A stretch of DNA of 64,000 nucleotides from a virus (IMGVR_UViG_3300022890_000014:64001-128000); one strand, 5' to 3'; numbered from the stretch's first letter, positions 685 through 63,811 are shown. The notes: generated by a model from the sequence alone, not told the origin. Made by a program: numbers and translations.

Positions 685-716
685 TGCGTAAGCCTTACGC
701 AAACGGAGAAAGTCTA

Positions 717-1220
717 ATGATCGAATACAAAAAGGTTGGAGAACTAGCTAACATTCACTGCATATCAGAATGGGACAGATGTCAAGTAGAGGAGGCTATC
801 GAGCTACTGCAATTTCTATTCAAAAGAGGAAGCACCGAAGTAAAAGACTTCGAGTGGGAAGATGTTCACATGTTCGCTGGATGCAACGGAAGTATATTTC
901 TTCAAAATAGACATGAACAAACAGCTGCGTACTCGAAATCAGACAATGAAATACTTCGTGTATATGATTGCTCATGCGGAGAAGAGATTCTTGGGTATGA
1001 AAATCTCCTTCAGCATATGGTAGACGAAACTGTTAGGGCTGTTGTTTTTGGAGATAGAGATATAAAAAGTTGTGGAGATTTCTTCTATGGTGTGTCGGGG
1101 ATAGACAAAGGAAAAATAGAGGAGTTATGGGAGTGGATAAAAAAAGAAATGAAAGAATGTGGCCTTGGAGATCCAGATCCAACAAGTCTAGAGGAATTGC
1201 AAGGAAAACAAAAAGGATAA
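717..1220 (+). CDS. hypothetical protein
   Basis: GGAG upstream of ATG 717; the longer MRKPYA start in the ORF track runs through the palindrome. Confidence 0.7.
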   Translation: MIEYKKVGELANIHCISEWDRCQVEEAIELLQFLFKRGSTEVKDFEWEDVHMFAGCNGSIFLQNRHEQTAAYSKSDNEILRVYDCSCGEEILGYENLLQHMVDETVRAVVFGDRDIKSCGDFFYGVSGIDKGKIEELWEWIKKEMKECGLGDPDPTSLEELQGKQKG

Positions 1221-1429
1221 TAAAAAAATATGATGTAGCCATACTTGTGGCTATATGGTACATCGGTGTGATAATCTTCTGCTATACACAATAAAAAAAG
1301 GGACAATCCGGTAGCCAGCCAGAAAGTCCCTTTCTTTATTGGAGAAGGTCTAATGAACAACTCTTATGCGGAGGTTGTGACGCAAAGGAGTATGCGTACA
1401 TAGTCTCACACTGTTGTTCATTTGTCAAC

Positions 1430-1738
1430 TTATATTTTTTTACACAATGTACATATTTTTATCCTAGGCATCAACATTTGTTTTCTGCCAAACTCTTCTT
1501 TTATTCTATTTATTTCCGACAATGAATGTTCGACTAGTACATGTATATTTTTATTTCCACACAAACAACATCTTGATGATGCATTTTTAGGGATAATTCC
1601 ACGAGAAAGCCAAGAACCCCACGTCACAGTTTTATTCTTTCTGTTCAATGGATACTCTTTTTCAGACTCTACTACGTGAGAACCGCCCCACTTATCAGAT
1701 GATTGTCCGATAAGTTTTATTGATGTGGCCTTAGCCAT
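1430..1738 (-). CDS. hypothetical protein with CxxC pairs
   Basis: CCLCG and CTLCK motifs. Confidence 0.6.
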   Translation of the reverse strand: MAKATSIKLIGQSSDKWGGSHVVESEKEYPLNRKNKTVTWGSWLSRGIIPKNASSRCCLCGNKNIHVLVEHSLSEINRIKEEFGRKQMLMPRIKICTLCKKI

Positions 1739-1755
1739 CTAGTTACACTGACCAT

Positions 1756-2268
1756 TCATGTCGAGTTCCTTTCACACATCTTGCATAGTAACTTGTGGGC
1801 TTCTCTATACCCATCTGTTTTTGCTTTTACGAACACTCTTCTTTTTCTTTCTAAACCTTTTGCCCACCTCTTACATTTCTCACACCTTCCATTCATCATG
1901 CACCAATAGCAATAAGGAAGAACTTTTCCTTCATCTCCTGTTATCCAGAAGATATTTCTGTCTTCATATACCTTATCGCAGTTCGAGCATACTGATTCTG
2001 GATCTTGCAAGTATGCTTCTGAGTATAGGTCAAGGATTATGTAGTGCTTGCACCACGAATTCCTTTGTCTAACCCTTGTCATCTTATTTCCAACACTAGA
2101 GGAGTTAAGCATCTCTAGTGCATCTTCTATCATAACCTCCTTTATCGACTGCCCATATAGTTCTTCTGAAAGAATATCGTCTAACCTTCTGACAACAGAG
2201 ACTATTTTCTCCTCATACTTCTCTGGGTTATTGAAAATATCCATAAGGATTGATTCTGACATAAGCAC
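1756..2268 (-). CDS. hypothetical Cys-rich (Zn-finger-like) protein
   Basis: CSNC, CYWC, CEKC, CKMC motifs. Confidence 0.65.
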   Translation of the reverse strand: MLMSESILMDIFNNPEKYEEKIVSVVRRLDDILSEELYGQSIKEVMIEDALEMLNSSSVGNKMTRVRQRNSWCKHYIILDLYSEAYLQDPESVCSNCDKVYEDRNIFWITGDEGKVLPYCYWCMMNGRCEKCKRWAKGLERKRRVFVKAKTDGYREAHKLLCKMCERNST

Positions 2269-2568: not shown

Positions 2569-2595
2569 TGTCCCTCCTTGCGTAAGCCTTACGCA

Positions 2596-4770: not shown

Positions 4771-4828
4771 CTTTTACTCCTACATGTTTTGTGGTTCAGT
4801 AAAAGACTTATACCCAATTGCGTAAGCC

Positions 4829-6649
4829 TTACGCATCATCAACATCCCTGAGTGACTCCCATATATTCTCAATATTAGGAACCAAGAAATCATCCATGCT
4901 AAATCCAGTAGATGTGATGGTCTGAGTTCTCTGTTTCTTTCTCATCGAAATCACAACCTTTTCATCACGGGTGTTTCTTGCTACGAGGAAGTATGCAAAA
5001 ATTGGTCTTTCTTGTCCATCTCTGTAGTTTCTATCGAATGATTGCTCGAAGTGCAGTAAGTTATCTGATAGAGAGAAGTAAAACATATAGTTAGCACACT
5101 GCATATTAGTCCCAACACCAACCGAAGCAGGATGAGCTACAAGAAAAATCTCTTCTGGCTCATCTAAGAACTTATCAAGAGCCTTCATTGTTTTGCCAGG
5201 TGTTTGCCCACCATAGGCAACCCCGTGATTTATACCTTTCTTTTTTAGCATTGCAGATATACTTCTGACTTCATGCTGAAACGAACACCATATTATTCCT
5301 TTGTTCTCTCTTATTTGAACCATCTCATCTACAAGTTCCTCAAGACACTCCATTTTTGCACTTGGTAGATCCTTCACTTCTCCTTCATCAGACTTGAAGA
5401 ATCCACTTGTTGCCTGTCTTAGTTTTGTGAACTTTGGAAGTAATTGTTCATATGAGGCTTGATGACCTTCATGCTCTGCAAACTGATCTTCGCATAGGTG
5501 CTTATAGAACGAACCTTGCTTTCTTCCCATCTTCACAGTCTTTAGAATGAGCGTTCTTTCTGGTAGGTCAAGCACGTCCTTCTTCATAAATCTAACTATG
5601 AATGGAGCTAGATGGTCTGCTAGCTGCCCTTCTGCCCCTCTCTTTGGAACCCAGTTGTATGAAAACTTGTTGTACTGGTATTTTTCGCGATAGGTTTTAT
5701 AATGTGTATCGAGTACGATACCGTTGTCTAGGAACTCGAATTGCCCGTAGTAGTCATCAATGCCGTTAGGTGCTGGAGATCCGTTAAGTATCATCTTGTG
5801 ATTTGCACTCTCAGATATTTTCTTTATCTTCTGTAGAGTCTTTGACTTCCAGTTCTTTATACCAGCAGACTCATCAACAATAACTAGATCTGGACCCCAA
5901 TCAATAATCCTAGGCATAAGACCAGCCAATGCTATGCTTGGGTTGCACAATATGATGTCGCACTTGGAGTCGAAGCAATCATCTATGTATCTCTGCTTCT
6001 TTTTACTAGTGAACTCAGACCATAGTATCCTATGGTCTAAAGACGTGAACTTTCGTATGTCACTTCTCCATGCATTCTTCATGGTAGATAATGGCGCTAA
6101 TACGAATGCTCTATCTATTATGCCTTGCTCAATGAGGAATTCTGCCCATACAAGAGACACATATGTTTTTCCAATACCCATGTCGAATAGAATTGCATGT
6201 GTATCCCTGACACCTAACTGCTCAAACATCCATCTTAGTGTTACTTGCTGATGCTTTCTTGGGTCCATCAGTGGAGACATCGCTCTTGGTAAATCAGGTA
6301 CTATTTCGTCATTCATGTAAGGCAATATGATTTCTTGCCTAAGTCTTACTAGAAGTTCTCTCTGTTTATTGTATATAGAATTCATCTTCTCAAGATATGA
6401 CTTTCTCATGTCATATTCTCTAGTCGATTCTATGTCAGGAACTAAGTCCTCAACTAGCTCAAGATTAACTCTTGACGCCTCCATTGTTATTGCGCCTGAG
6501 TCAGTCGGCGTAACATTGTAAAACATAGAGTGGAGTGCTGACTCCTCGTTCATATCTTTGTATTTAGGCTTGATTCGGAAGAATGATCTGTCCTCATAGT
6601 AGAATATATCTTTTTTCATTAGTTTCTCCATATAAGTATTTTCGGACAT
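4829..6649 (-). CDS. SNF2-family (SF2) helicase/ATPase
   Basis: Motifs DMGIGKT, VIVDESAGIKN, LNGSPAPN, GVGTNMQ, QSFDRNYRDGQ. Confidence 0.9.
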   Translation of the reverse strand: MSENTYMEKLMKKDIFYYEDRSFFRIKPKYKDMNEESALHSMFYNVTPTDSGAITMEASRVNLELVEDLVPDIESTREYDMRKSYLEKMNSIYNKQRELLVRLRQEIILPYMNDEIVPDLPRAMSPLMDPRKHQQVTLRWMFEQLGVRDTHAILFDMGIGKTYVSLVWAEFLIEQGIIDRAFVLAPLSTMKNAWRSDIRKFTSLDHRILWSEFTSKKKQRYIDDCFDSKCDIILCNPSIALAGLMPRIIDWGPDLVIVDESAGIKNWKSKTLQKIKKISESANHKMILNGSPAPNGIDDYYGQFEFLDNGIVLDTHYKTYREKYQYNKFSYNWVPKRGAEGQLADHLAPFIVRFMKKDVLDLPERTLILKTVKMGRKQGSFYKHLCEDQFAEHEGHQASYEQLLPKFTKLRQATSGFFKSDEGEVKDLPSAKMECLEELVDEMVQIRENKGIIWCSFQHEVRSISAMLKKKGINHGVAYGGQTPGKTMKALDKFLDEPEEIFLVAHPASVGVGTNMQCANYMFYFSLSDNLLHFEQSFDRNYRDGQERPIFAYFLVARNTRDEKVVISMRKKQRTQTITSTGFSMDDFLVPNIENIWESLRDVDDA

Positions 6650-6721
6650 TATCTTATACCTTGGTATAAGTATAGTACGCGTAAGCCTTACGCAACAAAC
6701 AATAAAAAAAAGAGGTGTGTC

Positions 6722-7189: not shown

Positions 7190-7529
7190 GGACACAACTA
7201 GAGATTGGGTTGAACATATATTGAGAAACACTGGAAGGATGTGGACTAAATTCCTGTATCTCCCAGATGATAACGATGTTGCATACCTAAGGTGTATAGG
7301 CTACACATCTGAGAATAGAGGAACAGAAGCGGGGGATGTGCCCAAATCAACTCAGGAGTTTGCAGAGTTTGACAACACTCATAGAAAGACTCAGTATATA
7401 GACAGTATGCAGATGTTCGAGGAAGAAGACTTTCCAGAATACATGCCTTCTTTATTCAAGGTATACTTAGGTGAGTTTCCGTCAAAAGAAGAAGCTCTAG
7501 AATACTACAAGAATACAGATCTTGCGTAA
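7164..7529 (+). CDS. hypothetical protein
   Basis: GAGGTG RBS; stop codon lies in a palindrome. Confidence 0.7.
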   Translation: MKKYYIIYEDTTRDWVEHILRNTGRMWTKFLYLPDDNDVAYLRCIGYTSENRGTEAGDVPKSTQEFAEFDNTHRKTQYIDSMQMFEEEDFPEYMPSLFKVYLGEFPSKEEALEYYKNTDLA

Positions 7530-7550
7530 GGCTTACGCGAAGGACTAACA

Positions 7551-9539: not shown

Positions 9540-9636
9540 CTATTTCTCCGTTTGCGTAAGGCTTACTCATTTCTATTCTTCTCCAATTTATAGGCTGAAT
9601 TGCCTACTAGATTACTTATACCTAGTTATTTCTCTA

Positions 9637-9652: not shown

Positions 9653-10132
9653 ACTATGAATGATGTGTTATCCTAGGGGTACATAGAGCATTACTTTATG
9701 CAGATGAACATTGTATCGAACGCGCAACAGAATGCTCGCTGTGTTGCTCTCTGCTATCCTCAGAGCAATCCTAGTGGATATAATCACCTAGGGAATTGAC
9801 CAGCACGGCTCAGGATTATAATGAGGAAGCTATGAGCTAGACAATTGGTAAGCCTTACTCATGAGCCGTTTCGATTCTCACCATTACTATTTGACCAGAA
9901 GCACTCTGATAGCTCCTGACAGCAAATTCTGCATAGGCTTACATACTCATTTGATACGATGTTCATCTGGACACCTAGAATCCACTCTGTGGGCACCATA
10001 TGAAGGATTCCTATATACTCATCAATTCCTACCAAACTAGTTCCCCCTAAAACAGACTTCAGACATATATACAGCCCCGCAGGTAGGTCATGAGAACCAA
10101 ATCGGAGAAAGTGATAAAACAGTTTATTTGAG

Positions 10133-10526: not shown

Positions 10527-10639
10527 TAGAATATTTGCATACATTTATTCAAGTGCGTAAGCCTTACATGTGGTATAAGAATAACAGCATATCACGAACT
10601 TAATCGCCACTATAGCCATAATCATCAACCGAGGTAATA

Positions 10640-13600
10640 ATGAACAGAACTACGGTAATTCAGAGGTACTCAGAAGCTATAGCTCCGTACTACAAGCCGC
10701 ATGGTCTTGTTGAGGTATGGGCTACAGGAAGTAAGAAAAAATGGACAAGGATAAGAATAGAGAACATCTCAGCGTGGACTGAAGCTGTAGGGAATACAGA
10801 CGTACATTGTACTCTACAGCAGTTCAAGATTCATCCAACACCATTCGAGGGAAAAGACAAGCATAGTGAGCCATACATAGCTCCGATATTCTTTGAGTTC
10901 GATGCATCAGAAAAGAGAGGGACAACACTAGAAGACTCTCGTAAGGATGCAATGAAGCTATGCACGTTCATTATAAACTCTGTCAATCCAGCCAAAGGAG
11001 TGTTGCGTATCTGGTACTCGGGGAGTCGAGGCTTCCACATTACAATAGATCCTCGTATGTTTGGCATACTACCAGACCCAGAACTACACATGTTCTACAA
11101 GGTTATTGCATTCCATTACGCAGAATTACTTAACTTGAAAACTCTAGACGAACAGGTGTATTCTGTACGAAGAACATTTAGGTTGCCAGATTCTAAGCGA
11201 AGTACTCAATGGGAGAGGGGTAAAGGAGACCTTGTAGACCAGCACAAGGTCGAGATAGAGTTCAATGAACTAGACATGATGTCTGTCGATGAGATACGAG
11301 AATTAGGAAGTGAGCCAAGAGGAGCACTATATAGTGACGAAGAGCTTGCTAGTATAGAGTTCAACCCAGACAGCACAAAATGGCTAAGGCATGCATACCA
11401 AGAGTTTCAGAATGAAAAAAGACTGAAAAACACGTCAAATAAGACTAAGGTTGTCATCAAAGCTGCTGATGACCAATCATTCCCAATATGTATAAAAGCT
11501 ATACTTGAATATGAGTTCGCAACAGACAAGCGCAATAAAGCCTGTTTGTCGTTGCTTTGTTTCCTAAATGATAGTGGTCGGTCGTATGATGACTCATGGG
11601 CTATCATTGAGGAATGGACAAGAGGTATTCCCTGGGACACTAAAAAAGAGGAAGAAAGAGTAGCAAACGCAAGAGCAATCATGCGTCGTGTGTTTACTGA
11701 AGACTCTATATACAACTTCGAGTGTCAATTTATCAGGTCGTGTGCTGGTGTTAACAACTCAAATAACGAGGTGTCAATACCATGTCTATACAACAACTGT
11801 AAGTTTGTCGAGAGTTCTGAGACAAGTTCAAGTGATGCTCCTAGAATTGAGCTTCAAGAATTCATCAGACCTGAGTACAATCGGACTCCGTGTAAGGCTT
11901 ACGCACACCTAATTGGCTTCATGGATAGAGCATTTTCTGTTCCAGCACAAGTAAGACTTAGTTGTCCTCATATTCTCAGTGATGGGAATACTCATCTTGT
12001 TCTTTGCGATACATGTGCAATGCCTAGTACTTCTGAGCAAATAAGCAGCGAAGATACACACGGGCAGGCATTGTCTAGAACAATGGAGATAAACCTCTTA
12101 CGTAATGGACTAGCCTTAATTGACGTGACATCTAAGATGAAGAAAGGGATGATACGTAGCTTGGCTGGTATTCATCCAAAGTGCCAGTCGTGGAGGATGG
12201 AAGAGGTTCAGAGTGCCACTATTAGACAGGTGATGCTTAAACCTCCATCAATTGATGAGTCGTCGTCTTCAGTATGGGATGCAGAAAGCTTTGAGGCTAA
12301 AAAGCAAGTAGGATTCCTAGCTACTAGAGAAGAAGACTCTATCTTGTCAAAAGAGAATACCGAAGTAGAGATTGTTGCTATGCCAATGGCATCACCTAAA
12401 GACCAGAGTATTCATCTTGCTATTTCTGGCATGACTAGTAGTGAGTCTGACTTAGATAAGTTTACAGTCACAGACGAGCTAAAGGAGCAACTATACTCTA
12501 TACATGCTGTAAAAGAAGGAGATACGGTAGAAGGTAAAGTCTTTGATAGAATACAGAAGATTGCATCACATATAGGTATTAGAGGAAGAGATGAGTTGAT
12601 ACTAGCAATGGACTTGGTGTTTCACTCAACTATGGCAGTAAAGCTAAGTGAGAAGGACATCGAAGAAAGAGGCTGGATGCAGTTGCTAGTCGTTGGAGAT
12701 CCAGGGCAAGGCAAGAGTAGTATCAGCAAAAGCCTCATGCGACATTACAATCTTGGACGCTCGATAGAATGTGGAGGCGCATCACGCACAGGCATCGTAT
12801 ATAGTATTGACATTACAAAGTACGGAAAAATGCTTGTTTGGGGTGTACTACCACAAGAGGATAGGCGACTGGTTGTAATAGATGAGTTCCACCAGTTAGA
12901 CGCAGAAGACCTTGAGATGATGACAGGTATGAGATCGTCAGGAATAGTAAAGGTCAATCGTATAGTTAGTGGAACAACACTATGTAGAACCAGAATGATA
13001 TTCCTTGCGAACCCTCCTGGTGATGGCAAGCTAGATGGGTACAGCTTCGGAATCAAGGCTATTAATGCGGTTATGACTAAGCAGCAAGATATACGCAGAC
13101 TTGACCTAGCTTCTATATGTAGGTCTGGTGATGTTAGCTTGGAAGATCTTAATAAGGTCTCTACAGATGGAGACTACGGAGAATATGAACCAAACTCTTG
13201 CAAGAACCTAATCTTATGGGCATGGACAAGGAAGACAGAACATATCAAATGGACTGAGCAGGCTGTTACTACTCTGATGAAGCAGTCTATTGATATAGCT
13301 AGATGGCTTGAGTGCGACATATCACTTGCAGAAGGTAGCGACATGAGATTCAGGCTTGCTAGGATAGCTCAGTCTGTTGCAGCCATGTGCTACTCATCTG
13401 ATTCCGAAGGCGAGAACCTTTGGATAAAACCAGAACATGTTGAGTTCGCAGCAGATGTATTTGTGCAATTGTCTACATCTGTTGGCAAAATGAACCTTCA
13501 TGTATATGCAAAGTCGTGGCAAGCAAGAAACACACTAACCGACAAGCAAAGAGAGGACTTAGGCAGAACACTAACTGGTAATACATGGTTCTTGGTGTTC

Positions 13601-13964: not shown

Positions 13965-14040
13965 AATGCGTAAGAAGTATCATGTAAGTATCATGTAAGT
14001 ATTACTTACGTAAGGCTTACGCAAACAATTGGAGAAGGTA

Positions 14041-15309: not shown

Positions 15310-16209
15310 ATGAGTACAGGATCTCCAGAATACTTTCAGGTTCCAGTAGAAGGAGAGGTGGTTGATAGGTTAGCTGGCATAGCTTCTGATCTAAACCTTC
15401 CTGATGTAGCCTCTATTGTTAACGGAATATTGAAGGAAAAAATCTTTCAGATCACTGGTGAGAATCTAGCTAAACCAGTGGTTCAAAAACCAAGCGTAAG
15501 CCTTACGCAACCACAAAATCCCTCTGTCGATGTTATGAATCTAGCAGATGAGCTTATTGCTGCTTCATCGAATGATGGGATGCTCAGTAACTCTCTCGGT
15601 CCATCACTGAATAGTGAAGCCACTCTAAACGATCTTCCTAGTTCACTACAGAAGCAAGCGGCTACTTACGTTGCACCTGCTCCTACTCCAAATGACAACC
15701 AGGTAAATACTCAGGATAGCGAAATAAAGAACATGTTGATGTCTCTATCAAATGAAATCAGGACAATTGGAAGTAGAGTAGAGTCGATTGAAGGAGCACA
15801 GAAACCTGTCCCTTTCGTCCAAGCGGGGAAAAAATCTTCTAGACCTGAAGATTCTCCGCATTGGAGAGCCGATGGTGTTCCCCCAGGTTTGTATCCAAGA
15901 TGCGCAGAGACATTTGTGATGGACCCAACGGTTAAACCTGCTACAAGCGATAGATGCACTCCGTATACTCAGGTAAACAATGCCGAAGGTAGATCTATTC
16001 ATAGATTCCTTGGCTGGAGAAGCCCACCAAAGAAGACACAAGGAAGACAGGCTGCACCTGTTGTTAACCATAAGCTTCCACCTTCCATAAGGGAGGCCCC
16101 TGTAGCATGGCATCACTCTTCGATGTTTCCAGATCATAAATCTACCCAGGTAGAGTATCCCACTGATGACAAGAAGGGTAAACGAAGAATTTTCATTAGT
16201 CCTGGTTGA
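15310..16209 (+). CDS. hypothetical protein, possible N-terminal RHH-like segment
   Basis: GGAG RBS; contains an in-frame palindrome (SVSLTQ). Confidence 0.75.
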   Translation: MSTGSPEYFQVPVEGEVVDRLAGIASDLNLPDVASIVNGILKEKIFQITGENLAKPVVQKPSVSLTQPQNPSVDVMNLADELIAASSNDGMLSNSLGPSLNSEATLNDLPSSLQKQAATYVAPAPTPNDNQVNTQDSEIKNMLMSLSNEIRTIGSRVESIEGAQKPVPFVQAGKKSSRPEDSPHWRADGVPPGLYPRCAETFVMDPTVKPATSDRCTPYTQVNNAEGRSIHRFLGWRSPPKKTQGRQAAPVVNHKLPPSIREAPVAWHHSSMFPDHKSTQVEYPTDDKKGKRRIFISPG

Positions 16210-17703: not shown

Positions 17704-17954
17704 CAAGAACAGGAAAATTGGTACAAGATACTCGCAAGAAAAGAATTTTGAAAGTAGAGTGTGCCAATTCGACTGTTATCATTATTGGCGCTAATGATAA
17801 CATCGCAAACATCCTAGAAGGTGGAGCCTTGGTTGACGGTAAAGCGCCTATGCAATTGCGTTGCATACATGAAATAGATTGGGTTGAAGGAGAAATCAAC
17901 CTAATCAGTAAGAAGAAACTGTTTCCTCCAGTTCTAAACGAAGAGGTTGCGTAA
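17700..17954 (+). CDS. hypothetical protein
   Basis: ATGA-coupled; stop codon lies in a palindrome. Confidence 0.65.
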   Translation: MTRTGKLVQDTRKKRILKVECANSTVIIIGANDNIANILEGGALVDGKAPMQLRCIHEIDWVEGEINLISKKKLFPPVLNEEVA

Positions 17955-17985
17955 GCCTTACGCACCAATAACGGAGAAGTCTAGA

Positions 17986-20636: not shown

Positions 20637-20702
20637 GCTCAAACCGTGTGTGTTCTCTGTGCGTAAGCCTTACGCACTAACTTTTTTTTCAAGGAGAAAC
20701 TA

Positions 20703-23353: not shown

Positions 23354-23411
23354 TGTTTGCGTAAGCCTTACGCATGGACTGATATAACTTTTTTAGCATG
23401 GAGAATGTCAA

Positions 23412-25239: not shown

Positions 25240-25437
25240 ATGCAACGAACACTGGATGCCACTGGAATGTTTAGTTTGGTCTCTAGCACATCTGACAAAC
25301 TGGACAAGCTAATGGAGAAGCATCTTCCAATTAACAGCCAAACAAGACGGAAGATAGTACTCTCGCCAAAGAGTGTTCCTTCTGGCAGCAAAAACCTTTC
25401 GCGTAAGGCTTACGCAGGAAAAGAAAACGGAGAATGA
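25240..25437 (+). CDS. small hypothetical protein
   Basis: GGAG upstream; in-frame palindrome (RKAYA). Confidence 0.45.
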   Translation: MQRTLDATGMFSLVSSTSDKLDKLMEKHLPINSQTRRKIVLSPKSVPSGSKNLSRKAYAGKENGE

Positions 25438-28132: not shown

Positions 28133-28197
28133 TTTGCGGTATAAGCCTTTTACGTGGAGAAACAAATTAATGCGTAAGTCTTACGCAAGGATGTATC

Positions 28198-29693: not shown

Positions 29694-29714
29694 GCCTTAC
29701 GCAGGGGAATAGAA

Positions 29715-34718: not shown

Positions 34719-34839
34719 TATGCGTAAGGCTTACGCACTAGTCGCTCATTGGTTTTACACTATGTTTATTCCGCAGTTGATAATGCCTAGGGCTTCTTTT
34801 GTTAATACTACTATGTCAGTCATGACGGCCTCATGTTTG

Positions 34840-36531: not shown

Positions 36532-36566
36532 GTCTTTTCCTTATGCGTAAGGCTTACGCACTAAGA

Positions 36567-38370: not shown

Positions 38371-38428
38371 GATATTTCCTCTGCGTAAGCCTTACGCAAT
38401 GAAAGGTTTGCCTGATATGTCTTACTCA

Positions 38429-40543: not shown

Positions 40544-40585
40544 TTTAAAAAAATCCTTCTGCGTAAGGCTTACGCATTATGTCAT

Positions 40586-44440: not shown

Positions 44441-44478
44441 ATTACTTTCTCCGTTTGCGTAAGGCTTACGCAGGCAAA

Positions 44479-45502: not shown

Positions 45503-45543
45503 GTGTGTCTATATACTACACTAGTTTTGAGGCTGCGTAAGGC

Positions 45544-46350
45544 TTACGCACTGGGGAGAGGTGGTGTTTTTGACTTGTTTGCTCGCTCACTGATTACTTC
45601 TTCTATTATTACTGGTGCTTGTCCAAGAGCCATGCCAGCTAGTGCTCCTACTGGACCAAACATAGATCCAACCATAGTTCCTCCGACTGTACTAACGAGC
45701 CTTCCTCTGTTCTGATGGAAGTTTCTAAGGTAAGTTTTTCCAGTATCTTCTTCGATTTGAGACTTCTCTTCTCCGTCTGCAACTTGAGACCAAGCAACTC
45801 TCTCCTTCTCCATTACATCTTCATCATGTATTTTCTTGGAGAATAGTCTAGCTAGACCTCTTGGAATATTAGCTCCACCATATGCAGTAGCTAGCTCGCC
45901 ATCATCTCTCTTCTTACTGAAGTCTGCTATATGCCCAATCTCATGATCAATAACTACTGGATTCATCTTCTTTGGAGCAATGATGTAATCTCCAGTATCA
46001 CCAGAGAACGCTAAGGCGTTACCACCATTAAGAACAACATTCTCCATGTATTCTTTAGGTCCGTTGCCCTTGAACTCTTTGTCCATTAGTACACCAACAT
46101 CTTTGACTGAAGAGACTAGGTTGACTTTACTGTTAGCTTTCAAGACTCTCTTCTTTACATTGGTTGCATTTCTACTCATGTGAGCGTCAATGTCTTCCTG
46201 TCTAGTTCTATTCTGAGACGAAGAATACACATCGTACAATCCAAGCCCTGTTAGCCCTAGGCCCACAGCACCTATGCCACCAGCAAGCCATGGATTGATT
46301 CCAGCCTGCTTTGTCATGCCGTAGAGTATTCCATTGTATATACTATTCAT
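45544..46350 (-). CDS. putative virion-internal protein with zincin HExxH motif
   Basis: DHEIGH...E.VAW; N-terminal YNGILYGMTKQAG; Gly-rich hydrophobic segments. Confidence 0.6.
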   Translation of the reverse strand: MNSIYNGILYGMTKQAGINPWLAGGIGAVGLGLTGLGLYDVYSSSQNRTRQEDIDAHMSRNATNVKKRVLKANSKVNLVSSVKDVGVLMDKEFKGNGPKEYMENVVLNGGNALAFSGDTGDYIIAPKKMNPVVIDHEIGHIADFSKKRDDGELATAYGGANIPRGLARLFSKKIHDEDVMEKERVAWSQVADGEEKSQIEEDTGKTYLRNFHQNRGRLVSTVGGTMVGSMFGPVGALAGMALGQAPVIIEEVISERANKSKTPPLPSA

Positions 46351-47314: not shown

Positions 47315-47371
47315 TGCGTAAGCCTTACGCGCTAGCGTTGTTAGTCTTTTCCTAGGTGATGTCCAGCACCC

Positions 47372-48185: not shown

Positions 48186-48195
48186 TGCGTAAGCC

Positions 48196-48603
48196 TTACG
48201 CGTTGTTGAATTTGTCAAACATTTTCTGTGCAGCGTCGAGTGCGTAGTTCATGTGTAGTTTAGACACCGGAACCTTGTTGCTTATGACATCTGCAATGCT
48301 TTTGTAGTACTTGTCAGCATCTTCGACTACTGCATAAGCGACCTTTCCACCTTCAACATTATACGACAGTTCGCGTATCATTGTCACTTTAGCTTTATTG
48401 GACAGGAACCATTTTACTGATTCCGAGGCAGTTTGTCGAGATATGATTCCAGGTTCAGCAACATCTTGTTGTAAGTTAATTTCCCGTTCGCTCTGGACTG
48501 AGTTAGAACTATCTTCCTTGGTGACTGGTATATCTTTTTTAGATGATCTCTGTTCTCGAAGGCAAAGGTTTCTTTGCTTCCAGGCATTAAGTGTGTCTGA
48601 CAT
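48196..48603 (-). CDS. hypothetical protein
   Basis: ORF ending in a palindrome. Confidence 0.65.
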   Translation of the reverse strand: MSDTLNAWKQRNLCLREQRSSKKDIPVTKEDSSNSVQSEREINLQQDVAEPGIISRQTASESVKWFLSNKAKVTMIRELSYNVEGGKVAYAVVEDADKYYKSIADVISNKVPVSKLHMNYALDAAQKMFDKFNNA

Positions 48604-49873: not shown

Positions 49874-49984
49874 GATTTCACCTCTAGTAATATGTTGATG
49901 TTTAGCACAGTAACAGACTTATACCACTAGTTCACTGGTTGCGTAATGAATATCAAGTAAGCTTACGCGTAAGCCTTACGCAGA

Positions 49985-51550: not shown

Positions 51551-51640
51551 TTATAAAAAAAGATAATTGGGGTTGAACCCCGCGTAAGGCGTGTTGCGTA
51601 AGGCTCTTAGTCTTTGCGTAAGCCTTACGCAGCCAACGAA

Positions 51641-53201: not shown

Positions 53202-54062
53202 CTATCTTCTTCCCATTCGTTGTTGCAATGCGTTTGCTAACTCTTGTTGTCCAGCTTCTTTTCCACCTGAGCGACCAGCTAGGTAAGCTCCACCACCAAC
53301 AACAGGAAGTCCAACTACTCCCCATCTGCCAATGCTTCCAAGCCTAGTGTTAGGCTTTACATCTTTAGAAACAGAATCCACCAGTTGGTCAGTTGGTTTT
53401 TCAGTTGGTTTTTCACCTGGAACTTTACTTGGTGGTCCAGGCTTAGGCGCTACTTTTGGCGTAGTTTTAGCGGCACCAGATGCGAAACCAGTAGGAGTCG
53501 AGGCTTCCACTTTGGCAACTTCTTTACCCCAGTTTTTACCAACTCCAGAACTAAAAACACTAGGCTTAACTGGTTTCTGAACACTCTTAGCAGCCATTTG
53601 TTCTCCAGCACCAGCAACTCGCATGCCTATGTTAGACATTTGTCGACCTAGCCAGTTACCAATTCGGGCAGTCTTAAGAAGCTCTTCTTCTGCATGCGTA
53701 AGGCTTACGCCTGCTTCAGCTTTTTCGGAAGTGGACTCAATGAAATCATTAAGCCAAGGAGAGGGCATACCTTGAAGATCGATGCCAGCCTCTTTTGTAA
53801 TGAATGAGAAGTCTCGATCTTTGATAGGGCCAAATCTGCTACTAAGAGCTATCTGGCTCAGTTCAGATGAGATCTTCTCAAGCATTGACCTTCCGAGGTC
53901 TGACAATCCATCTCCAGAGGGAAGCGTATCATGCCATCTAGATTCCTCTTCCTTAATGAACAACGAGGATTGCTTCGCCTGCATACAAGAAAGAGCGGTG
54001 TTAGCCTCTACGTCTTGAGCAAAAGAATTAATTCCGTTCATATAGTTGTCGAATCCAGACAT
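53202..54062 (-). CDS. putative head-internal protein
   Basis: K-x-A motifs; C-terminal Gly-rich hydrophobic segment; in-frame palindrome (VSLTH). Confidence 0.55.
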   Translation of the reverse strand: MSGFDNYMNGINSFAQDVEANTALSCMQAKQSSLFIKEEESRWHDTLPSGDGLSDLGRSMLEKISSELSQIALSSRFGPIKDRDFSFITKEAGIDLQGMPSPWLNDFIESTSEKAEAGVSLTHAEEELLKTARIGNWLGRQMSNIGMRVAGAGEQMAAKSVQKPVKPSVFSSGVGKNWGKEVAKVEASTPTGFASGAAKTTPKVAPKPGPPSKVPGEKPTEKPTDQLVDSVSKDVKPNTRLGSIGRWGVVGLPVVGGGAYLAGRSGGKEAGQQELANALQQRMGRR

Positions 54063-54368: not shown

Positions 54369-54483
54369 TCTTTTATTCTCCGATTTATATACAGGCTATG
54401 TACATAAATGTTATTGCGTAAGATTCAACACGGAAGTCTTTGCGTAAGCCTTACGCGACACCGAAATGCCGCGAAATTGTAGA

Positions 54484-55515: not shown

Positions 55516-55577
55516 TTCTTACCTCTCGAATTATTTCTAGTAGAAATTCTCATTGCGTAAGGCCTACGCACATAAGA

Positions 55578-56155: not shown

Positions 56156-59100
56156 TTAATCGAAAGCTTTGTGCATTAGTTCTCCGTCAACCAGGCCAGC
56201 TAGCATCGTAGGTAGCGCAGCGGTAGGAGCCATAAGCGCCCATGTCAAACTACCAAGCGCCCTGTCTTGCCAATTATACGGGTTATGCGGAGCTTTAACT
56301 TTTTGTTCAGGTGGTCCTTCGATCTTATTTTGCAACTTCATGGCAAGGTTAGCTCCTTTCCTGAACACGTCAGCAGTTTTTATGCTACTGAGCTTTTTAC
56401 CTATGAGTCCCTTTGCGGCTCTTGCAGTAGACGGCCCAGCAGCGAGATAGCCGAGAGATAGAATGTCAGGATTCATTGCAACCCATTTGTTTATATCTCC
56501 TATCTGCTCTCCTCTCATTGCTCTTCGTCTCTGATGCATAGAGTATCCGTGGATAGCTGGCATTGTAGCTAGTGCTCCAAGATGAGCCTTGGCTATGTTC
56601 TCACTCCAGGGAAGAAATTCAGCTAATCCAGCGGTCTTCATTAGCTCGCTAGCAGTCTTCATTGATTCATAGATAGTTGGATCATCCCCACCATCAAAGA
56701 AGTTATCGTATGCTATACCAGCTAGACCAGTAAGAGCTACAATAGCTGCTGCTTCAGGTGACATCATTCCTGTTTGTTTGCTACCTGGAATATTAAGAGC
56801 CTTGACAGCAGCGTTTCTCAGGAATGGATAGGCCAATGCAGCAATTCCCATCGTCTCTATTACACTCATGGGTTCTCTGCTATCTTCCACTTTCTGCTTG
56901 AATCTTTCAGAGTCAGCAAGCATAGCCGGATCGATACTGCCCTGCTTGAGCATAATGACTGCGCTTCTTGCTCTTGGGAAGTAATGAGTAGGCATCATGG
57001 ATCTGTGAGCCATAATAGGTCTCAGGTCTTCCATCATGTCTTCATTGGGAGAGCCAAACATAAGAGAGTTAATTCTAGGTGTAAGCCTAGCACTTACTCT
57101 TCCTAGAACACCTTGTCCAACTTCGCTTCCAAAGTCAAACTGGTCAAAGCACATATTCTTCTTATGGAGATGGTCAGAATACCCATCCATACCCATTCCA
57201 TTAAGAAGCATGCGTTGAAATTCCATTGGTCTTGGTATGATTCGCATCTCTCTCATAGTGCTCATCACATTGCCACATGGAACAGTTCTTGATTTGTTTA
57301 TGAAGTCTTCAGGAATATCATATGGCTCAGACTGCATATCCATAGTCAGCATGACTTCTCTTAGCTGTGCGAGAACCTTGTCTATAAATTCCTCACTAAG
57401 CTTAGTCTTTCCTACTTCTTGCCTTTCCTCTGGTGGAAGGTCAATAGCTTCAGATCCACTGGTAGGAGCTTCTTTTTCAATGACTGCATGCTTTACTTCT
57501 TCTCCACCCTTAACAAAGTTAAGTAATGAGGATACCGCTGCTGTTTTACTCATTGAGTTCTCCACAAGAGATCCATCTTCACACGTAGCACTGTAAGTTT
57601 GCTCTGCGTAAGGCTTACGCACTGAAACAACGGAAGCAACTTTCATCACTCCCTCAGAAACCTTATCAGCATTAATGAACACCTTAGATATATCAAACAG
57701 AGAGGGGAGATGGTTGATTGCAAAGACCTTTGTTCCATCCCTGTTTGTTCTGCCCATACTGTGTTTGAGGTGATCGCAATACTCTGTAGTCCAGCGACTA
57801 AGACCTGGAATATTTCTTCCATGAGTTCTATTGTACTCGCTGTTATGCATAAGCACGTAGTCACCAGGAGATACATACTTCTCTCTAACAATTAGATCTG
57901 TATACCACTCGTGAATCCATCTCTCAACTTTGTCTCTCGTACCATGTATTCTGTCACATTCTGAGCAGTTATGAACAGATATCCCATTAACAAGATAGGT
58001 CTCATCCACATCAACACTTAGATTATACACAAAGCCAGAATACTTTTCTTTTTTAATTCCAGATATAGGCGTGGCATAATACTTGTTTCCAGAAGGTGTA
58101 GTCCAGAAAAATCCAGAAGAGACGTTACGTTTTTTATATGATGTGACTTTCTCGGAATATTTAGAAAGAATCTCCGAATATCCCGCTGGTATACATACAG
58201 CATAAGAGACAACTTTATCTTCAGAATAAGAACCACCATTTCCTATCCATTTATTTATTATTGCAGGAATTCCGCACTGAATTAACAGTTGTCTACACCC
58301 AACCATAAGTTGCTCATTTACACCATTTATACGAATAGAGCCACATCTGGTTCCGTGATCTTGACTTCCATCAGTATCTATCATTCCTCCAAGAAAATAA
58401 AGTTTCTCATAATAGCTGGCGTTAAAAAGATAAGGAGGAACGATCTTGTTTACACCAACAGTTCCGCAAGCAGAAATAACTGCTCTTGCAAGTTCTTGAT
58501 CGTAAATCCTGTAATATACTGCGTTTCTGTCATTCTGAACATATTTTTTTATTGATGAATTAGACAAGCTACTTATTGTCTCATCAATATTCCTCATGTG
58601 TTCTACTTCACTAATATTACACGTAAATCCTAATCCTTGCAGCTTATGTCTTCCGTCTTTTTTTCTACCACTTTTTTGAATGATTCTGTGTCCATCTCCA
58701 CAAAAATACCCAAAAAGCCTAGCTAGCATAACACTTCCACCAGTACTAGGCTCTATTATGGGGGATAGAGTATAGTCTCCGACACGAAGATTTTCAGCAT
58801 CTATCCATTCAGGACTAATTGTTATCTTCTCTGGAGGAAGCCTTCTTCCGTTGCCTGCTCTGGCAGATTCTTTTCTCACTGCAAGAATTGGATGATTTTT
58901 TGTTGCCTTTACTTTTCTATACGTACCGATGTGACTTATTTCGATAATGTCATCATCAGCCTGAGCACTCTTAATTACTCTTAGGACCTTATGTGTCTCT
59001 CCAGTATGAGTGACCACACTATGAATATGCTCATTGATAGAATCTATCCTAACTTCACCCAAGTTGGTCTTTACAAGCGAATCTGGCGTGAAGCAAATAT

Positions 59101-60586: not shown

Positions 60587-60668
60587 GTTGAATCCTAATA
60601 AAAAACAACCCCACTATGAGTACACACAGAGAGGTTAGCTTTTTCTTTGTATGCGTAAGGCTTACGCA

Positions 60669-61293: not shown

Positions 61294-62217
61294 TTATCTG
61301 ATATTTTCTCGTGCTTGCATCTCAAGATCCGACATTGGGTCTTTTCTACCCCTCTTATCTTTTCTATCGTCTGGATGTGTTAGATTTGCTTTAGAATAAG
61401 AACCTCGTTCCATTTTAAGCTTGGCAGCACCCTCGTCTTCATTCATTGGTTGAAGACCCATTCCCATTCCTCTAGCCTTCATCTGACCTCTGTATGCCTG
61501 TTCTTCTTCTGCTTTTCTGGTAGCAGTAACATTAGCATTTGGTCTCATGGCATCTTCTATTCCAATTCTAGATGCATGCATAACATGCTGTCCAATTCCC
61601 TGCAAGCCTTGCTGAATAAGACCTTGAGAGAACTGAGTCCCAATTGATGGACCTTTTCTATCTAGTGCTGCTTCTGCTCTAGCTAGCTGACCGACATCTT
61701 CAAATCCAACGCCACCATAGCTAGCTAAGTTTCTTTTCACAAAGTTAGCTGCCAGATGTGGATTCTTTGCCATAGTAGGTGAGGATGTTGAGAATATAGA
61801 GAAGTATTTGTCTACATCAGCCTTATCTGCATTCTTCAAGTCTGGATTATAGCTCATCATAGAGTCGTAAGCTTCTTCGTGTTGCTTCTTCTCTTTGCGC
61901 TCTGACATCCAGTCTGTTACAGCAGCACCAGCTAAACCAGCACCAGCCAGTCCTACCGTACTAAGTATAGCTGTTAGGATACCTTTGAACGGAGAAGACT
62001 TAGCAACCTCCAATCCCTCAGTAATACCCTGGGTTACAGCACTGCCTACTACCTCAGCAGTCTTATCGAAGTGTTGCATATTAACAGACATATTGTCATC
62101 GATAAACTCGCCTATCTTAACAAGTCTACCAACAACAGCTTCAAGGACTGCATCAGCTTCGGTGTGGCTAATACTTCCTTGTTTTACTAGTGTGTCTAGT
62201 TGTTGTATTGATTGCAT
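61294..62217 (-). CDS. putative head-internal protein
   Basis: DKTA; Gly/Ala hydrophobic segment; NPDL...F....P..A.NP. Confidence 0.65.
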   Translation of the reverse strand: MQSIQQLDTLVKQGSISHTEADAVLEAVVGRLVKIGEFIDDNMSVNMQHFDKTAEVVGSAVTQGITEGLEVAKSSPFKGILTAILSTVGLAGAGLAGAAVTDWMSERKEKKQHEEAYDSMMSYNPDLKNADKADVDKYFSIFSTSSPTMAKNPHLAANFVKRNLASYGGVGFEDVGQLARAEAALDRKGPSIGTQFSQGLIQQGLQGIGQHVMHASRIGIEDAMRPNANVTATRKAEEEQAYRGQMKARGMGMGLQPMNEDEGAAKLKMERGSYSKANLTHPDDRKDKRGRKDPMSDLEMQARENIR

Positions 62218-62225
62218 ATCTGCCT

Positions 62226-62486
62226 CTAAAATAGTTTGCTTGTACTTGAGCTTGGTTCTAAAAGACTAGATCTTGGCTTGAAAGATTTAGTTGTTGCCCC
62301 AACAAGACCTTTCTTGTATGCTCCAACTGCTCCAGGTACAACAAACGCTGCTGTTAGTGAATGACCAGGATTCTTCACTATAGTCTTTGCTGTACCGCCA
62401 ACGAGCTTGCCAATACCTTTTGCAGTAAGTGATCCTATAGTTCCTTGTTTAGTCATGCCTATAAAGATTCCATCATATATAGTCAT
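62226..62486 (-). CDS. small putative head-internal protein
   Basis: N-terminal IYDGIFIGMTKQG. Confidence 0.6.
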   Translation of the reverse strand: MTIYDGIFIGMTKQGTIGSLTAKGIGKLVGGTAKTIVKNPGHSLTAAFVVPGAVGAYKKGLVGATTKSFKPRSSLLEPSSSTSKLF

Positions 62487-62488
62487 TA

Positions 62489-63586
62489 TTAACTCTCGTT
62501 AGATATTCTTGAGGAGTAGTTAAGTCTGTTCTCTTCGCCTTCCACTGTTTTTAGTCCAATGTTCTTGACTTTGAGAGCTTTCTTTATTTCTCCAATATGA
62601 TTGATGTGTTTGACGATAACTGAGTCACCGTTTAGAACTCTTACTCTACCATCTAGACTCTTAGATAGCATACTCTCGCTAACCGGAAGACTAGTTCCGC
62701 CAGCAGTTTTTCTGAGATTGAGTACTCCTGAGCCAGAAATGTTATCTATAGCTCTTCTCCACTCTTCAGCCTCATCACCTCTCATAGCTCCGTAGTTCTG
62801 CATGTAGACAGAAGCTTCTTTCAACAATACGGCTGTGTCATCACTTTGCTCTGCCATCAATGCGCCTTGAATGACATCAAGGAAGTTTGTTCCTTCGTCA
62901 ACATATGCCTTGGCAGTCTTGCAGAAAGCAAGTCTTGCTCCGTCTAATTGAAGTTCAAGCATCCCTACTTCACCCTCAAGAACATCTCTTGCCATAGCAG
63001 CATACTTACCTTGGTTATCAGGAAGTACTGTTTCGTTTAGGAAAGACATGTCATCTTCAGGCATCGAGTTGAACTGAATCTCATCACCTAAAGAAACTGG
63101 ATCTATTAGGTAATCTTCGTAGTTTCCATCAGCCATGATGCCAGCAAACTTTTCGAGGTCATCGGCTTGGCTCCTTTTTATAATAGGGACTGATGGGCTG
63201 CTTTGCTGAGTGTTGACTGATGCAACCTTGACTGCTTTAACTGTCGAGTAATCCGACTCAGGCTTCATGTTTTTGCTAGCAACAATCTTTCTTACTTCTG
63301 ACTTCTTAGCGGTACTCTTATTGGTTGCCTTAGAGTCAGACCTTAAAGACTTCTGCACCAGAGCTTTGTTTGTTGCCTCTACAAGCCTATCTGTGTAGTT
63401 ACTATTGAGTCCAGCACTGATAGCTTTGTTTGCTATAGTAGTTGCTGTGTCTTTATTTACATCAGACTCAACATCGTTAGCGCACTCAGCGCCCATCATA
63501 TCGATGTCAGTGTTGCTGCATCCAGCGGTCTTTCCCACAATAGCCATCTTAAACATGTCTTCTACTGAATATAGGATTGATGTCAT
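62489..63586 (-). CDS. putative head morphogenesis protein
   Basis: I..KA...GLN.....RLVE..N; many K-x-A motifs. Confidence 0.6.
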   Translation of the reverse strand: MTSILYSVEDMFKMAIVGKTAGCSNTDIDMMGAECANDVESDVNKDTATTIANKAISAGLNSNYTDRLVEATNKALVQKSLRSDSKATNKSTAKKSEVRKIVASKNMKPESDYSTVKAVKVASVNTQQSSPSVPIIKRSQADDLEKFAGIMADGNYEDYLIDPVSLGDEIQFNSMPEDDMSFLNETVLPDNQGKYAAMARDVLEGEVGMLELQLDGARLAFCKTAKAYVDEGTNFLDVIQGALMAEQSDDTAVLLKEASVYMQNYGAMRGDEAEEWRRAIDNISGSGVLNLRKTAGGTSLPVSESMLSKSLDGRVRVLNGDSVIVKHINHIGEIKKALKVKNIGLKTVEGEENRLNYSSRISNES

Positions 63587-63811
63587 TTATTTGCTGCTCC
63601 CTGAATTGCTTGCGTAAGCCTTACGCACTTCACTATTGTTCATGTCATTGCCATCAACATCGCAGTGACTACTTTTGGTTTTTTCTCTATTTGTCACACT
63701 GCATAAGCCTATGGATGTTCCATTAACGCTTCGTTTTAGTCTATCGCAAAGATCACAGCGAAGTGCAGTTGTCTTTTTCATATTAAAATCTCCTATTAAA
63801 GATAGTACCAT
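63587..63811 (-). CDS. small Cys-rich protein (start probably internal)
   Basis: CDLC...C....C; in-frame palindrome (RKAYA). Confidence 0.45.
   Translation of the reverse strand: MVLSLIGDFNMKKTTALRCDLCDRLKRSVNGTSIGLCSVTNREKTKSSHCDVDGNDMNNSEVRKAYASNSGSSK

Follow-up and report, generated by a model that had tools for sequence, protein, structure and literature searches.

The 150,744-bp virus record IMGVR_UViG_3300022890_000014 (IMG/VR, estimated to be 82% complete) carries 82 copies of a 17-bp palindrome, TGCGTAAG-N-CTTACGCA, which form an evenly spaced lattice along the whole phage genome, between genes as well as within them. The palindrome was first noticed, from the sequence alone, in bases 64001-128000 of this record (the window, a stretch of 64,000 nucleotides, to whose coordinates we refer unless a genome position is indicated), and an earlier note suggested that its copies are bound by a dimeric protein that organises the phage DNA rather than forming a classical regulon. 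Five related metagenomic phages carry an evenly spaced lattice of the same design with palindromes of their own. We consider it likely that the sites are read as duplex DNA by a dimeric protein of some kind, and a protein of the ParB/Noc/KorB fold encoded in the window is our candidate for this reader.

The window contains 20 exact copies of the palindrome, compared with none in 100 shuffled sequences, and 33 copies with up to two mismatches, compared with 0.01 expected by chance. Together with three degenerate copies of three mismatches each (at 9845, 10554 and 43251), this gives 36 copies, of which 20 are perfect, 12 have one mismatch and one has two mismatches; the counts of 20, 12 and 4 in the earlier note, its coordinates and its largest in-window gap (3457 bp, from 29687 to 33144) are thus all correct. 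Over the whole record, the 82 copies with at most two mismatches comprise 55 perfect, 21 one-mismatch and six two-mismatch sites. The centre base is G or C throughout, except for a single T at 28171, and on the sense strand C and G are used 31 and 22 times, respectively, a difference that is not significant (p=0.27), in agreement with the first impression that the sites have no consistent polarity. The 17-bp unit is not accompanied by flanking repeats or by target duplications beyond the 17 bp. Two pairs of twin sites lie 27-28 bp apart (genome 34019/34047 and 14884/14911), and short arrays of the half-site GTAAG adjoin some full sites (upstream of window 14007 and of genome 139163); both arrangements hint at cooperative binding or at site duplication.

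The gaps between the 82 copies have a mean of 1833 bp, a coefficient of variation (CV) of 0.44 and a maximum of 3896 bp. We compared these values with three null models, i.e. uniform placement over the record, placement of an equal number of sites at random gene junctions and random intragenic positions, and reshuffling of the intragenic sites with the observed intergenic ones held fixed. Under these models, respectively, the CV was 0.99, 1.01 and 0.71 and the largest gap averaged 8.9, 9.6 and 7.6 kb, and the observed values were reached in none of 20,000 simulations of each (P<5e-5). The spacing is therefore under-dispersed, its evenness is real, and the comparison with Poisson-like and intergenic nulls that the earlier note had proposed comes out as non-random. 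Copies inside long genes close the gaps that would otherwise arise: three lie in a fused RNA polymerase gene and one each in genes of 1440, 1206, 1154, 1140, 1075 and 733 amino acids (aa), and the largest gap without the intragenic copies would be 9.4 kb.

The placement of the sites relative to genes was examined on a simple map of open reading frames (ORFs), according to which about 93% of the record is coding. Between genes or at their edges, i.e. in the roughly 7% of the sequence that is non-coding, there are 67 copies (82% of the 82), and the other 15 are inside genes. At the tandem junctions with a site (n=54), the TAA of the palindrome serves as the stop codon of the upstream gene in 15 cases and the upstream gene abuts the palindrome in five, and at half of these junctions the palindrome ends no more than 16 nt before the next start codon, immediately 5' of the Shine-Dalgarno sequence. 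A tie to the ribosome-binding site (RBS) was nevertheless rejected, because among the 31 roomy junctions, in which 25 nt or more are to spare, 12 have the site next to the RBS, 11 next to the upstream stop codon and eight in the middle. Junctions are occupied in 51 of 132 tandem, five of 18 divergent and two of 17 convergent cases, and the sites at window 34721 and genome 60589 are at convergent junctions that have no gene start. The intragenic copies are read as x-R-K-[A/P]-Y-A in nine cases and as x-V-[S/R]-L-T-x in six, and never in the third frame, which is closed since it contains TAA; as both open frames are used, no peptide is selected. All this is most simply explained if the genome requires a site about every 2 kb and places it at the lowest cost. 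In the earlier proposal, the DNA sequence and the density of sites, and not the peptide or promoter position, are what is under selection; this holds for the peptide and for the filling of gaps, but the sites are mostly intergenic and pressed against gene boundaries. Nor are they indifferent to gene position, for several of them lie 5-6 bp upstream of a promoter-like GGTATAAG element.

Lattices in related phages

The exact palindrome recurs as a repeat in none of the other IMG/VR contigs or bacterial genomes scanned, but related phages carry lattices of the same kind. The exact palindrome gave five single matches and no multi-copy contig among the other IMG/VR contigs, and 114 single matches, estimated to be about the number expected by chance, and no multi-copy host-like genome in a scan of bacterial genomes. 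More than ten Faecousia metagenome-assembled genomes (L217-L296) each contain one exact copy, which is probably one conserved locus of that genus and not a phage link. An IMG/VR scan with the palindromes of two relatives gave single matches only and was uninformative, and no related loci were found with the primase-helicase as the query. The relatives described here are metagenomic contigs identified by way of the terminase (53-58% identity) or of orthologues of the ParB-like protein. L213 has aTGCGTAAG-S-CTTACGCAt (11 copies in 15.7 kb), with the half-site GCGTAAG as in the present genome; L212/L214 have the looser C-R-TAAG-S-CTTA-Y-G (30 copies in 42 kb); L020 and L216 have GCATAAG-S-CTTATGC (nine in 15 kb and five in 7.8 kb, respectively); L021 and L339 have TGCATGAG-S-CTCATGCA, with the half-site GCATGAG (11 in 22 kb and 13 in 19.7 kb, respectively); and L215 has GCATGCG-C-CGCATGC (two copies in 3.3 kb). 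Where the palindrome changes between phages, both arms change symmetrically, and all versions retain the 8-1-8 architecture. The spacing is under-dispersed in each locus of the relatives as well (CV 0.28-0.53, P from 1e-4 to 0.04), with largest gaps of 2.0-2.9 kb in these shorter loci. The scan of the full genome and of related phages suggested in the earlier note thus extended the lattice both genome-wide and to five relatives.

The positions of the sites are partly conserved between these phages. Although the palindromes differ, a site precedes the ParB-like gene in five of five phages and the PD-(D/E)XK nuclease gene in four of four, at syntenic positions, whereas the junctions upstream of a Gp3-like gene, of a small ORF and of a thymidylate kinase gene are never occupied. 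Conservation of the intragenic copies, which the earlier note had put forward for testing, holds for the 733-aa protein, in which two phages that are 37% identical there have a site at the identical alignment column, but not for the primase-helicase, in which the sites of two phages are at different residues (420 and 208). All sites of a genome thus change in concert, at positions of which some are conserved and others replaced, which is the mark of a trans-acting reader with a drifting specificity. Near-identical strains, at 99.7-100% identity, differ too little for site conservation to be gauged.

In two other cases no lattice was seen. None was present in 15 kb of L023/L024, a relative whose large terminase subunit (TerL) is 56% identical and in which AGATCT-centred motifs reach only about twice a rough base-composition expectation. 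GenBank phages gave remote matches only; Salmonella phage Arash is among these few weak relatives, and neither a lattice in its whole genome nor a ParB-like protein of the type described below was found.

The candidate reader and competing explanations

The 544-aa product of 17986-19620(+), which the earlier note had named among three candidate binders, is a genuine protein of the ParB/Noc/KorB fold and is conserved in exactly the clade that bears the lattice. It matches the PHROG family 'ParB-like partition protein' (5.6e-11). Its arginine-rich ParB box II (GxxRxxA), DGHRRFTAG, is invariant in eight orthologues and aligns to GERRYRAA of Spo0J (1vz0). A profile of the orthologues aligns with Spo0J (1vz0, 3.7e-13), Noc and ParB over both box II and the helix-turn-helix (HTH). 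The AlphaFold model (pLDDT 81) retrieved ParB-CTP, Noc, ParB-parS and KorB structures as the top folds in Foldseek (target TM-scores 0.43-0.62). Word-based homologue searches, with the single sequence and with the alignment, returned the query only, probably owing to the low-complexity tail; in an exhaustive HMMER search, seven proteins of about 490-560 aa were retrieved as orthologues at E<=1e-20, together with a weaker eighth (P0129, 628 aa, E 3.7e-10), and ordinary ParBs ranked below. The orthologues are in the same gene order wherever the context is known. The protein differs from ordinary ParBs by a two-helix coiled-coil insert in its N-domain and a coiled-coil tail of about 150 aa. No ParA-type ATPase was detected in the 150.7-kb record with AAA_31 (PF13614), with which all 14 of 14 control genomes were matched; the protein would therefore be an orphan ParB like Noc, and classical segregation through parS-like sites, one of the functions originally envisaged, is unlikely, while compaction, self-marking and packaging, which were envisaged with it, are conjectural. 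The other two binders suggested at first found no support as readers of the palindrome: the 71-aa product of 33477-33692 has no match, and the orthologues of the 120-aa product of 27770-28132 in relatives match sigma-70 region 4.

The link between the sites and this protein is circumstantial, and consists of its family membership, its co-occurrence with the lattice in one clade and an apparent co-variation of recognition helix and site. A palindrome is located 13-29 nt upstream of the ParB-like gene in five of five phages. Five site-reader pairs can be compared, the ParB-like genes of L020 and L021 not being linked directly. Phages with a TAAG core have the predicted recognition helices KRSTILQR, SFSTIGQR and SKGHVQQR, and those with a TGAG or TGCG core have SRDHIRQR and SRDTIRQR, so that an Arg appears where A became G, which is chemically sensible. 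On this basis we propose that the palindromes are binding or loading sites on double-stranded DNA for a homodimeric phage protein, most likely the ParB-like protein, a proposal that we hold to be evenly balanced between right and wrong. From these features we infer binding, spreading and a biological output, which would work as follows. Selection would ensure that no part of the genome is further than about 2 kb from a site; the sites would be accommodated at the lowest cost between a stop codon and the next RBS, often donating the TAA stop, and long genes that would otherwise open a gap would have a site recoded into their protein. ParB-type dimers would nucleate at each site and spread or slide over 1-2 kb, thereby covering the whole phage chromosome. 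With such a reach, a gate is needed at most every ~4 kb or so, which fits the largest gap of 3.9 kb. The output could be a KorB-like global control of transcription, a mark of phage DNA for the phage's own RNA polymerase, or protection.

Several observations weigh against this proposal. The Pfam ParB_N domain scores only 16 bits, below its cut-off. Box III (ENLQR), which canonical ParBs need for CTP binding and hydrolysis, is absent and is replaced by GMQQE here and by GMQQE or GLSxE in the orthologues, which makes clamping or sliding doubtful and CTP-dependent clamping uncertain; a CTP-independent ParB-like protein has been reported (PMC12260392). The occupancy of the ParB-like junction is matched by that of the PD-(D/E)XK junction and is therefore not specific evidence, and the co-variation of helix and site may reflect a single lineage event or shared descent. 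On the sense strand, the 5' T deviates in about 19 imperfect copies and the 3' A in about four, as counted in a list of oriented sites; since the left arm frequently forms part of the upstream gene's end, a coding constraint on it could be the cause, but this bias and the under-occupancy of convergent junctions hint at some coupling to gene direction. Moreover, the 82% completeness of the record and the crude ORF heuristic behind the gene map limit how the placement and the missing ParA are to be read.

The sites might instead be bound by a different dimeric phage protein, e.g. a transcription factor acting together with the phage's RNA polymerase and sigma, in which case the lattice would be a very dense regulon, its sites being operators or activator sites. 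We regard this as unlikely. The phage does encode a transcription apparatus, namely a fused beta-beta' RNA polymerase of the multisubunit type and a sigma-like protein, and a second motif, tGGTATAAG followed four bases on by ATAG, recurs at about 28 intergenic places genome-wide, mostly in the early and replication modules (in the window at 4807, 6653, 6664, 9615, 10573, 16227, 28139, 33132, 33376 and 49918). The GGTATAAG word is present in the relatives too, TGGTATAAGTA is the most repeated 11-mer of Arash (12-13 copies), and the GGTATAAG-type motif probably serves the RNA polymerase and sigma of the phage as their promoter. Upstream of this element, five palindromes end at a distance of 5-6 bp and others at 9-21 bp, about ten in total; the great majority of sites are at gene junctions, only two of 17 convergent junctions are occupied against 51 of 132 tandem ones, and in the intergenic regions of the late genes the palindrome is the sole repeated motif. 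However, several palindromes lie downstream of the element, in the 5' untranslated region (UTR), and there is thus no single geometry. The left arm was rejected as a -35 element, since TGCGTA matches TTGACA at only two of six positions at the right spacing. A regulon predicts neither the even spacing nor the gap-filling copies inside long genes; stop codons are abutted as often as RBSs, the distance to the start codon or promoter is not fixed, the sites are symmetric with a non-directional centre base, and no other candidate reader was identified. A dimeric reader of the kind first proposed thus explains the data better than a promoter regulon, or than the hairpins considered below.

A stronger form of the ParB-like proposal takes the palindromes as loading gates through which a ParB-type clamp would coat the entire chromosome as an identity mark of phage DNA, every position being about 2 kb or less from a gate. 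The coat would then act, like the T4 gp45 'mobile enhancer', as a mobile co-activator that hands a virion-borne RNA polymerase and sigma to phage genes, or as a shield that tells self from host DNA for the UvrD-type helicase and PD-(D/E)XK nuclease of the phage or that protects it from host defences. We think that this goes rather further than is probable.

The palindrome could also act as a hairpin. In single-stranded DNA (ssDNA) it might be a signal for lagging-strand priming, loading or recombination by the primase-helicase, at about Okazaki-fragment spacing and for either direction of the fork. Sites about 1.8 kb apart, with a strict maximum to the gaps and no dependence on orientation, would suit a signal used once per fragment; the phage encodes an archaeo-eukaryotic-type (AEP) primase fused to an MCM-like helicase, and the symmetric co-variation between phages preserves the complementarity of the arms. 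The fold is weak, though: the 17-mer, calculated as RNA, gives a 7-bp stem with a 3-nt loop at -5.9 kcal/mol, and the versions of the relatives give -4.5 to -6.8 kcal/mol. In addition, the G/A position of the two half-sites of L212/L214 is occupied by GG in 15, GA in four, AG in six and AA in four sites, i.e. the arms assort independently (Fisher p=0.39), so that in roughly one site out of three the arms would be non-complementary and the hairpin mismatched. Within a genome the sequence is strictly kept without compensatory pairs, which speaks for base-specific reading, and the lone half-sites that flank some full sites, such as two extra CCTTACGC upstream of the capsid gene, cannot fold at all. 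We know of no precedent for a lattice of ssDNA priming hairpins in a phage with double-stranded DNA, and consider the idea improbable.

An RNA hairpin between cistrons, serving as a processing site, a stability element or a site for an RNA-binding protein beside the RBS, would account for the half of the tandem-junction copies that end 9-16 nt before a start codon directly 5' of the Shine-Dalgarno sequence, for three 5'UTR copies that are downstream of GGTATAAG and still beside the Shine-Dalgarno sequence (genome 417, 92171 and 130665), and for the better conservation of the 3' A than of the 5' T on the sense strand. We nevertheless give it very little weight. The fold is weak, the mismatches are mostly C·A or A·C and not G·U, a T-run follows on the sense strand in only one of 12 copies at 14001-34000, whereas true terminator-like hairpins are present elsewhere, and Rfam has no match in the window; neither a stable G+C-rich stem with a U-tract nor an RNA family, as in intrinsic terminators or structured intercistronic RNAs, was found at the palindromes. 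Besides, 15 copies are intragenic, some are upstream of promoters and hence outside the mRNA of the downstream gene, the upstream stop is abutted as often as the RBS in roomy junctions, and the even spacing is left without an explanation. Taken together, hairpin energies, independent assortment, half-sites, T-runs and the Rfam result favour a base-specific reading of duplex DNA by a symmetric dimer over both hairpin models.

Finally, a selfish short repeat (REP- or MITE-like, or a homing-nuclease target) that spread into tolerated positions would fit the many near-identical, mostly intergenic copies and the few decayed copies and half-sites, but is most improbable, since random insertion would give a CV near 1 and leave the gaps in long genes unfilled, the sites of different phages keep their positions as their sequence changes in concert, flanking repeats and target duplications are lacking, and bacteria and IMG/VR gave single matches only.

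Sites in the window and gene content of the phage

The individual sites of the window and the candidate reader are listed in Table 1.

Table 1. Palindromic sites and the candidate reader in the window; strands of neighbouring genes are given in brackets.
Feature	Position	Strand	Context
Perfect	685..701		intergenic; 15 nt upstream of ATG at 717
Perfect	2579..2595		10 nt upstream of start of 2269-2568(-)
Perfect	4819..4835		TAA stop of 4829-6649(-); 6 nt upstream of GGTATAAG promoter-like element
1 mismatch	6678..6694		divergent junction; just downstream of GGTATAAG element
1 mismatch	7523..7539		TAA stop of 7164-7529(+); 11 nt upstream of ATG at 7551
1 mismatch	9553..9569		13 nt upstream of start of 9219-9539(-)
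Degenerate, 3 mismatches	9845..9861		intergenic
Degenerate, 3 mismatches	10554..10570		5 nt upstream of GGTATAAG element preceding primase-helicase gene
2 mismatches	11889..11905		inside primase-helicase gene (CKAYA); no site at this column in relative's orthologue
1 mismatch	14007..14023		17 nt upstream of start at 14041; extra GTAAG half-sites upstream
1 mismatch	15493..15509		inside 15310-16209 (VSLTQ)
Perfect	17948..17964		TAA stop of 17700-17954; 21 nt upstream of ParB-like gene; junction occupied in 5/5 related phages
Candidate reader, orphan ParB/Noc/KorB-like, 544 aa	17986..19620	+	DGHRR box, HTH, coiled-coil insert, long coiled-coil tail
Perfect	20660..20676		26 nt upstream of PD-(D/E)XK nuclease gene; junction occupied in 4/4 relatives
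Perfect	23358..23374		37 nt upstream of HD-domain gene
1 mismatch	25400..25416		tail of small ORF 25240-25437 (RKAYA); 22 nt upstream of start at 25439
Perfect, sole centre T	28171..28187		10 nt upstream of start at 28198
Perfect	29687..29703		gives upstream TAA stop; 11 nt upstream of start at 29715
Perfect	33144..33160		6 nt upstream of minus-strand GTATAAG element
Perfect	33686..33702		TAA stop of 33477-33692; abuts ATG at 33703; centre G gives AAGG Shine-Dalgarno
Perfect	34721..34737		convergent junction; no gene start nearby
Perfect	36544..36560		12 nt upstream of start of 35638-36531(-)
Perfect	38382..38398		11 nt upstream of start of 37483-38370(-)
Perfect	40560..40576		16 nt upstream of start of 39848-40543(-)
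Degenerate, 3 mismatches	43251..43267		inside 1284-aa gene; within genome's largest gap
Perfect	44456..44472		15 nt upstream of start of 40586-44440(-)
Perfect	45534..45550		gives stop of 45544-46350(-)
1 mismatch	47315..47331		abuts ATG of 46343-47314(-)
1 mismatch	48186..48202		at end of 48196-48603(-)
1 mismatch	49966..49982		directly after stop of 49985-50479(-); then extra half-sites
Perfect	51615..51631		76 nt upstream of capsid gene 50612-51538(-); then two extra CCTTACGC half-sites and terminator-like hairpin
1 mismatch	53695..53711		inside 53202-54062(-) (VSLTH)
1 mismatch	54441..54457		intergenic; 72 nt upstream of 54078-54368(-)
1 mismatch	55554..55570		intergenic; 38 nt upstream of 55240-55515(-)
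Perfect	57605..57621		inside 1154-aa protease/intein gene (RKPYA)
Perfect	60652..60668		directly after stop of 60669-61277(-)
Perfect	63611..63627		24 nt upstream of start of 62489-63586(-); inside doubtful 64-aa ORF

The fused RNA polymerase is encoded outside the window by a single ORF of 2520 aa (genome 2278-9840(-)), with the domains Rpb2_6 (6e-39) and Rpb1_2 (2.5e-32); a LAGLIDADG-type intein interrupts it, and its three palindromes are in frame. The sigma-like protein has 346 aa (genome 51815-52855, PHROG 4.9e-8). The record also encodes the large terminase subunit, a major head protein, the AEP primase fused to an MCM-type helicase, a UvrD-type helicase, and PD-(D/E)XK and HD proteins. 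In Arash, RNA polymerase beta, beta' and sigma are contained in the virion (PMC10585845).

A few side observations concern the neighbouring genes. The PD-(D/E)XK nuclease (20703-21917) and the UvrD-type helicase (25891-27705) share a module with the ParB-like gene, an arrangement that is kept in the relatives, and the two proteins together could form a phage helicase-nuclease. The 120-aa protein of 27770-28132(+) has orthologues in the syntenic L214 and L339 that match Sigma70_r4 (Pfam); besides the sigma-like protein of 346 aa, the phage may have in it another, minimal factor resembling sigma region 4. The 1154-aa product of 56156-59620(-) has a weak N-terminal match to prohead proteases and a LAGLIDADG intein at residues ~206-551, so the phage has at least two inteins. 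The names 'sheath' (40586-44440) and 'protease polyprotein' (56156-59620) that were first given to two long genes should be taken with reserve, as the former has no Pfam or PHROG match and the latter a PHROG prohead-protease match of 7e-5 besides its intein. The region upstream of the capsid gene (51540-51631) contains, in order, a full palindrome, two direct CCTTACGC half-sites, a GGGGTTCAACCCC hairpin with a T-run and TATAAAT before the Shine-Dalgarno sequence, and may be a late promoter or regulatory region.

Known site-reader systems and the meaning of the lattice

Our targeted search of open-access papers found no description of an evenly spaced palindrome lattice in a phage, but several known systems share parts of it. 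The IncP plasmid RK2 has about a dozen O_B sites for KorB, compared with the 82 sites here. KorB, a sliding clamp, is loaded at a 13-bp palindrome, TTTAGC-S-GCTAAA, from which it reaches promoters up to 1.5 kb away (PMC11790492). The likeness consists in the ParB fold, a short palindrome with a G/C centre, and dispersed copies near promoters, far from them or in genes, and the 1.5-kb reach of KorB matches the ~2-kb reach implied for the present lattice. Of the present sites, about ten are 5-21 bp upstream of promoter-like GGTATAAG elements and others are in 5'UTRs, and most have no promoter that could be recognised in their vicinity. On the other hand, KorB has a ParA partner (IncC), the locking partners KorA and TrbA, and the CTP-binding motifs, whereas no ParA was found here and box III is missing; no regular spacing is reported for O_B, and the present genome is that of a lytic-type phage with its own RNA polymerase. 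Noc is an orphan protein of the ParB family with tens of palindromic NBS sites over the chromosome, and tethers DNA to the membrane in cell division. It resembles the candidate reader, whose profile and fold match it, in having no ParA partner, but NBS sites are sparse, one per tens of kb, and not evenly spaced. SlmA and its SBS sites belong with Noc and NBS in this comparison with nucleoid occlusion. In the canonical ParABS systems, with the parS centromeres of P1 or of chromosomes, a ParB-fold reader likewise recognises a palindrome of ~16 bp near its own gene, but ParA is required and one to about ten sites are clustered, whereas no ParA and 82 evenly spread sites were found here; besides, a phage of a type that packages RNA polymerase in its virion is unlikely to need plasmid-like segregation. 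The T4 clamp gp45, a mobile enhancer of late transcription, loads at nicks and forks, tracks along DNA and activates the phage-modified RNA polymerase at nearby promoters. It is alike only in its working, i.e. loading points and a tracking ring, as it is PCNA-like, uses no sequence-specific palindromes and has no homology to the candidate reader.

Among phages, those of mycobacteriophage Cluster O (e.g. Corndog) carry a 17-bp dyad, TGTTCGG-NNN-CCGAACA, in 34-37 copies in 70 kb, about one per 1.9 kb (PMC4351075). These copies are intergenic, near gene starts and intragenic, follow no orientation rule and are not in the host, and their function is still unknown; the authors proposed a dimeric DNA-binding reader and thought a transcriptional role unlikely, and the phage encodes a protein with a ParB-like domain, gp90 (PMC4351075). 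The two cases have in common more than 30 copies (82 here) of a 17-bp dyad across a non-temperate phage, between and within genes, but the spacer is 3 bp against 1 bp here, and sequence, host and phage lineage are unrelated. When we re-scanned Corndog, its 37 copies had a CV of 0.94 with gaps from 35 to 6910 bp and were dense at the right end; they therefore lack the regular spacing that distinguishes the present lattice. The present lattice is a real feature that chance does not explain and that is conserved as a whole, and we would place it among the site-reader systems of the ParB type, as a novel form with a candidate reader.

If the ParB-like protein reads the sites, this would be the densest and most regular ParB-type array known to us, with 82 sites at one per 1.8 kb. 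The hard limit on the gaps, enforced even inside genes, would then be a natural readout of how far a protein reaches from its loading site, and the idea of a sliding clamp as a long-range regulator, as in KorB, would extend beyond plasmids, to a lytic-type phage equipped with an RNA polymerase of its own. If the whole chromosome were indeed coated, it would be a new, genome-wide use of the ParB fold in a virus, with a maximum-gap rule strong enough to recode proteins. The five natural site-reader pairs are ready material for specificity swaps, and the present lattice may help to explain the 17-bp repeats of Cluster O. Even with another reader, an evenly spaced lattice that evolves in concert would be an unusual constraint on the architecture of a phage genome.

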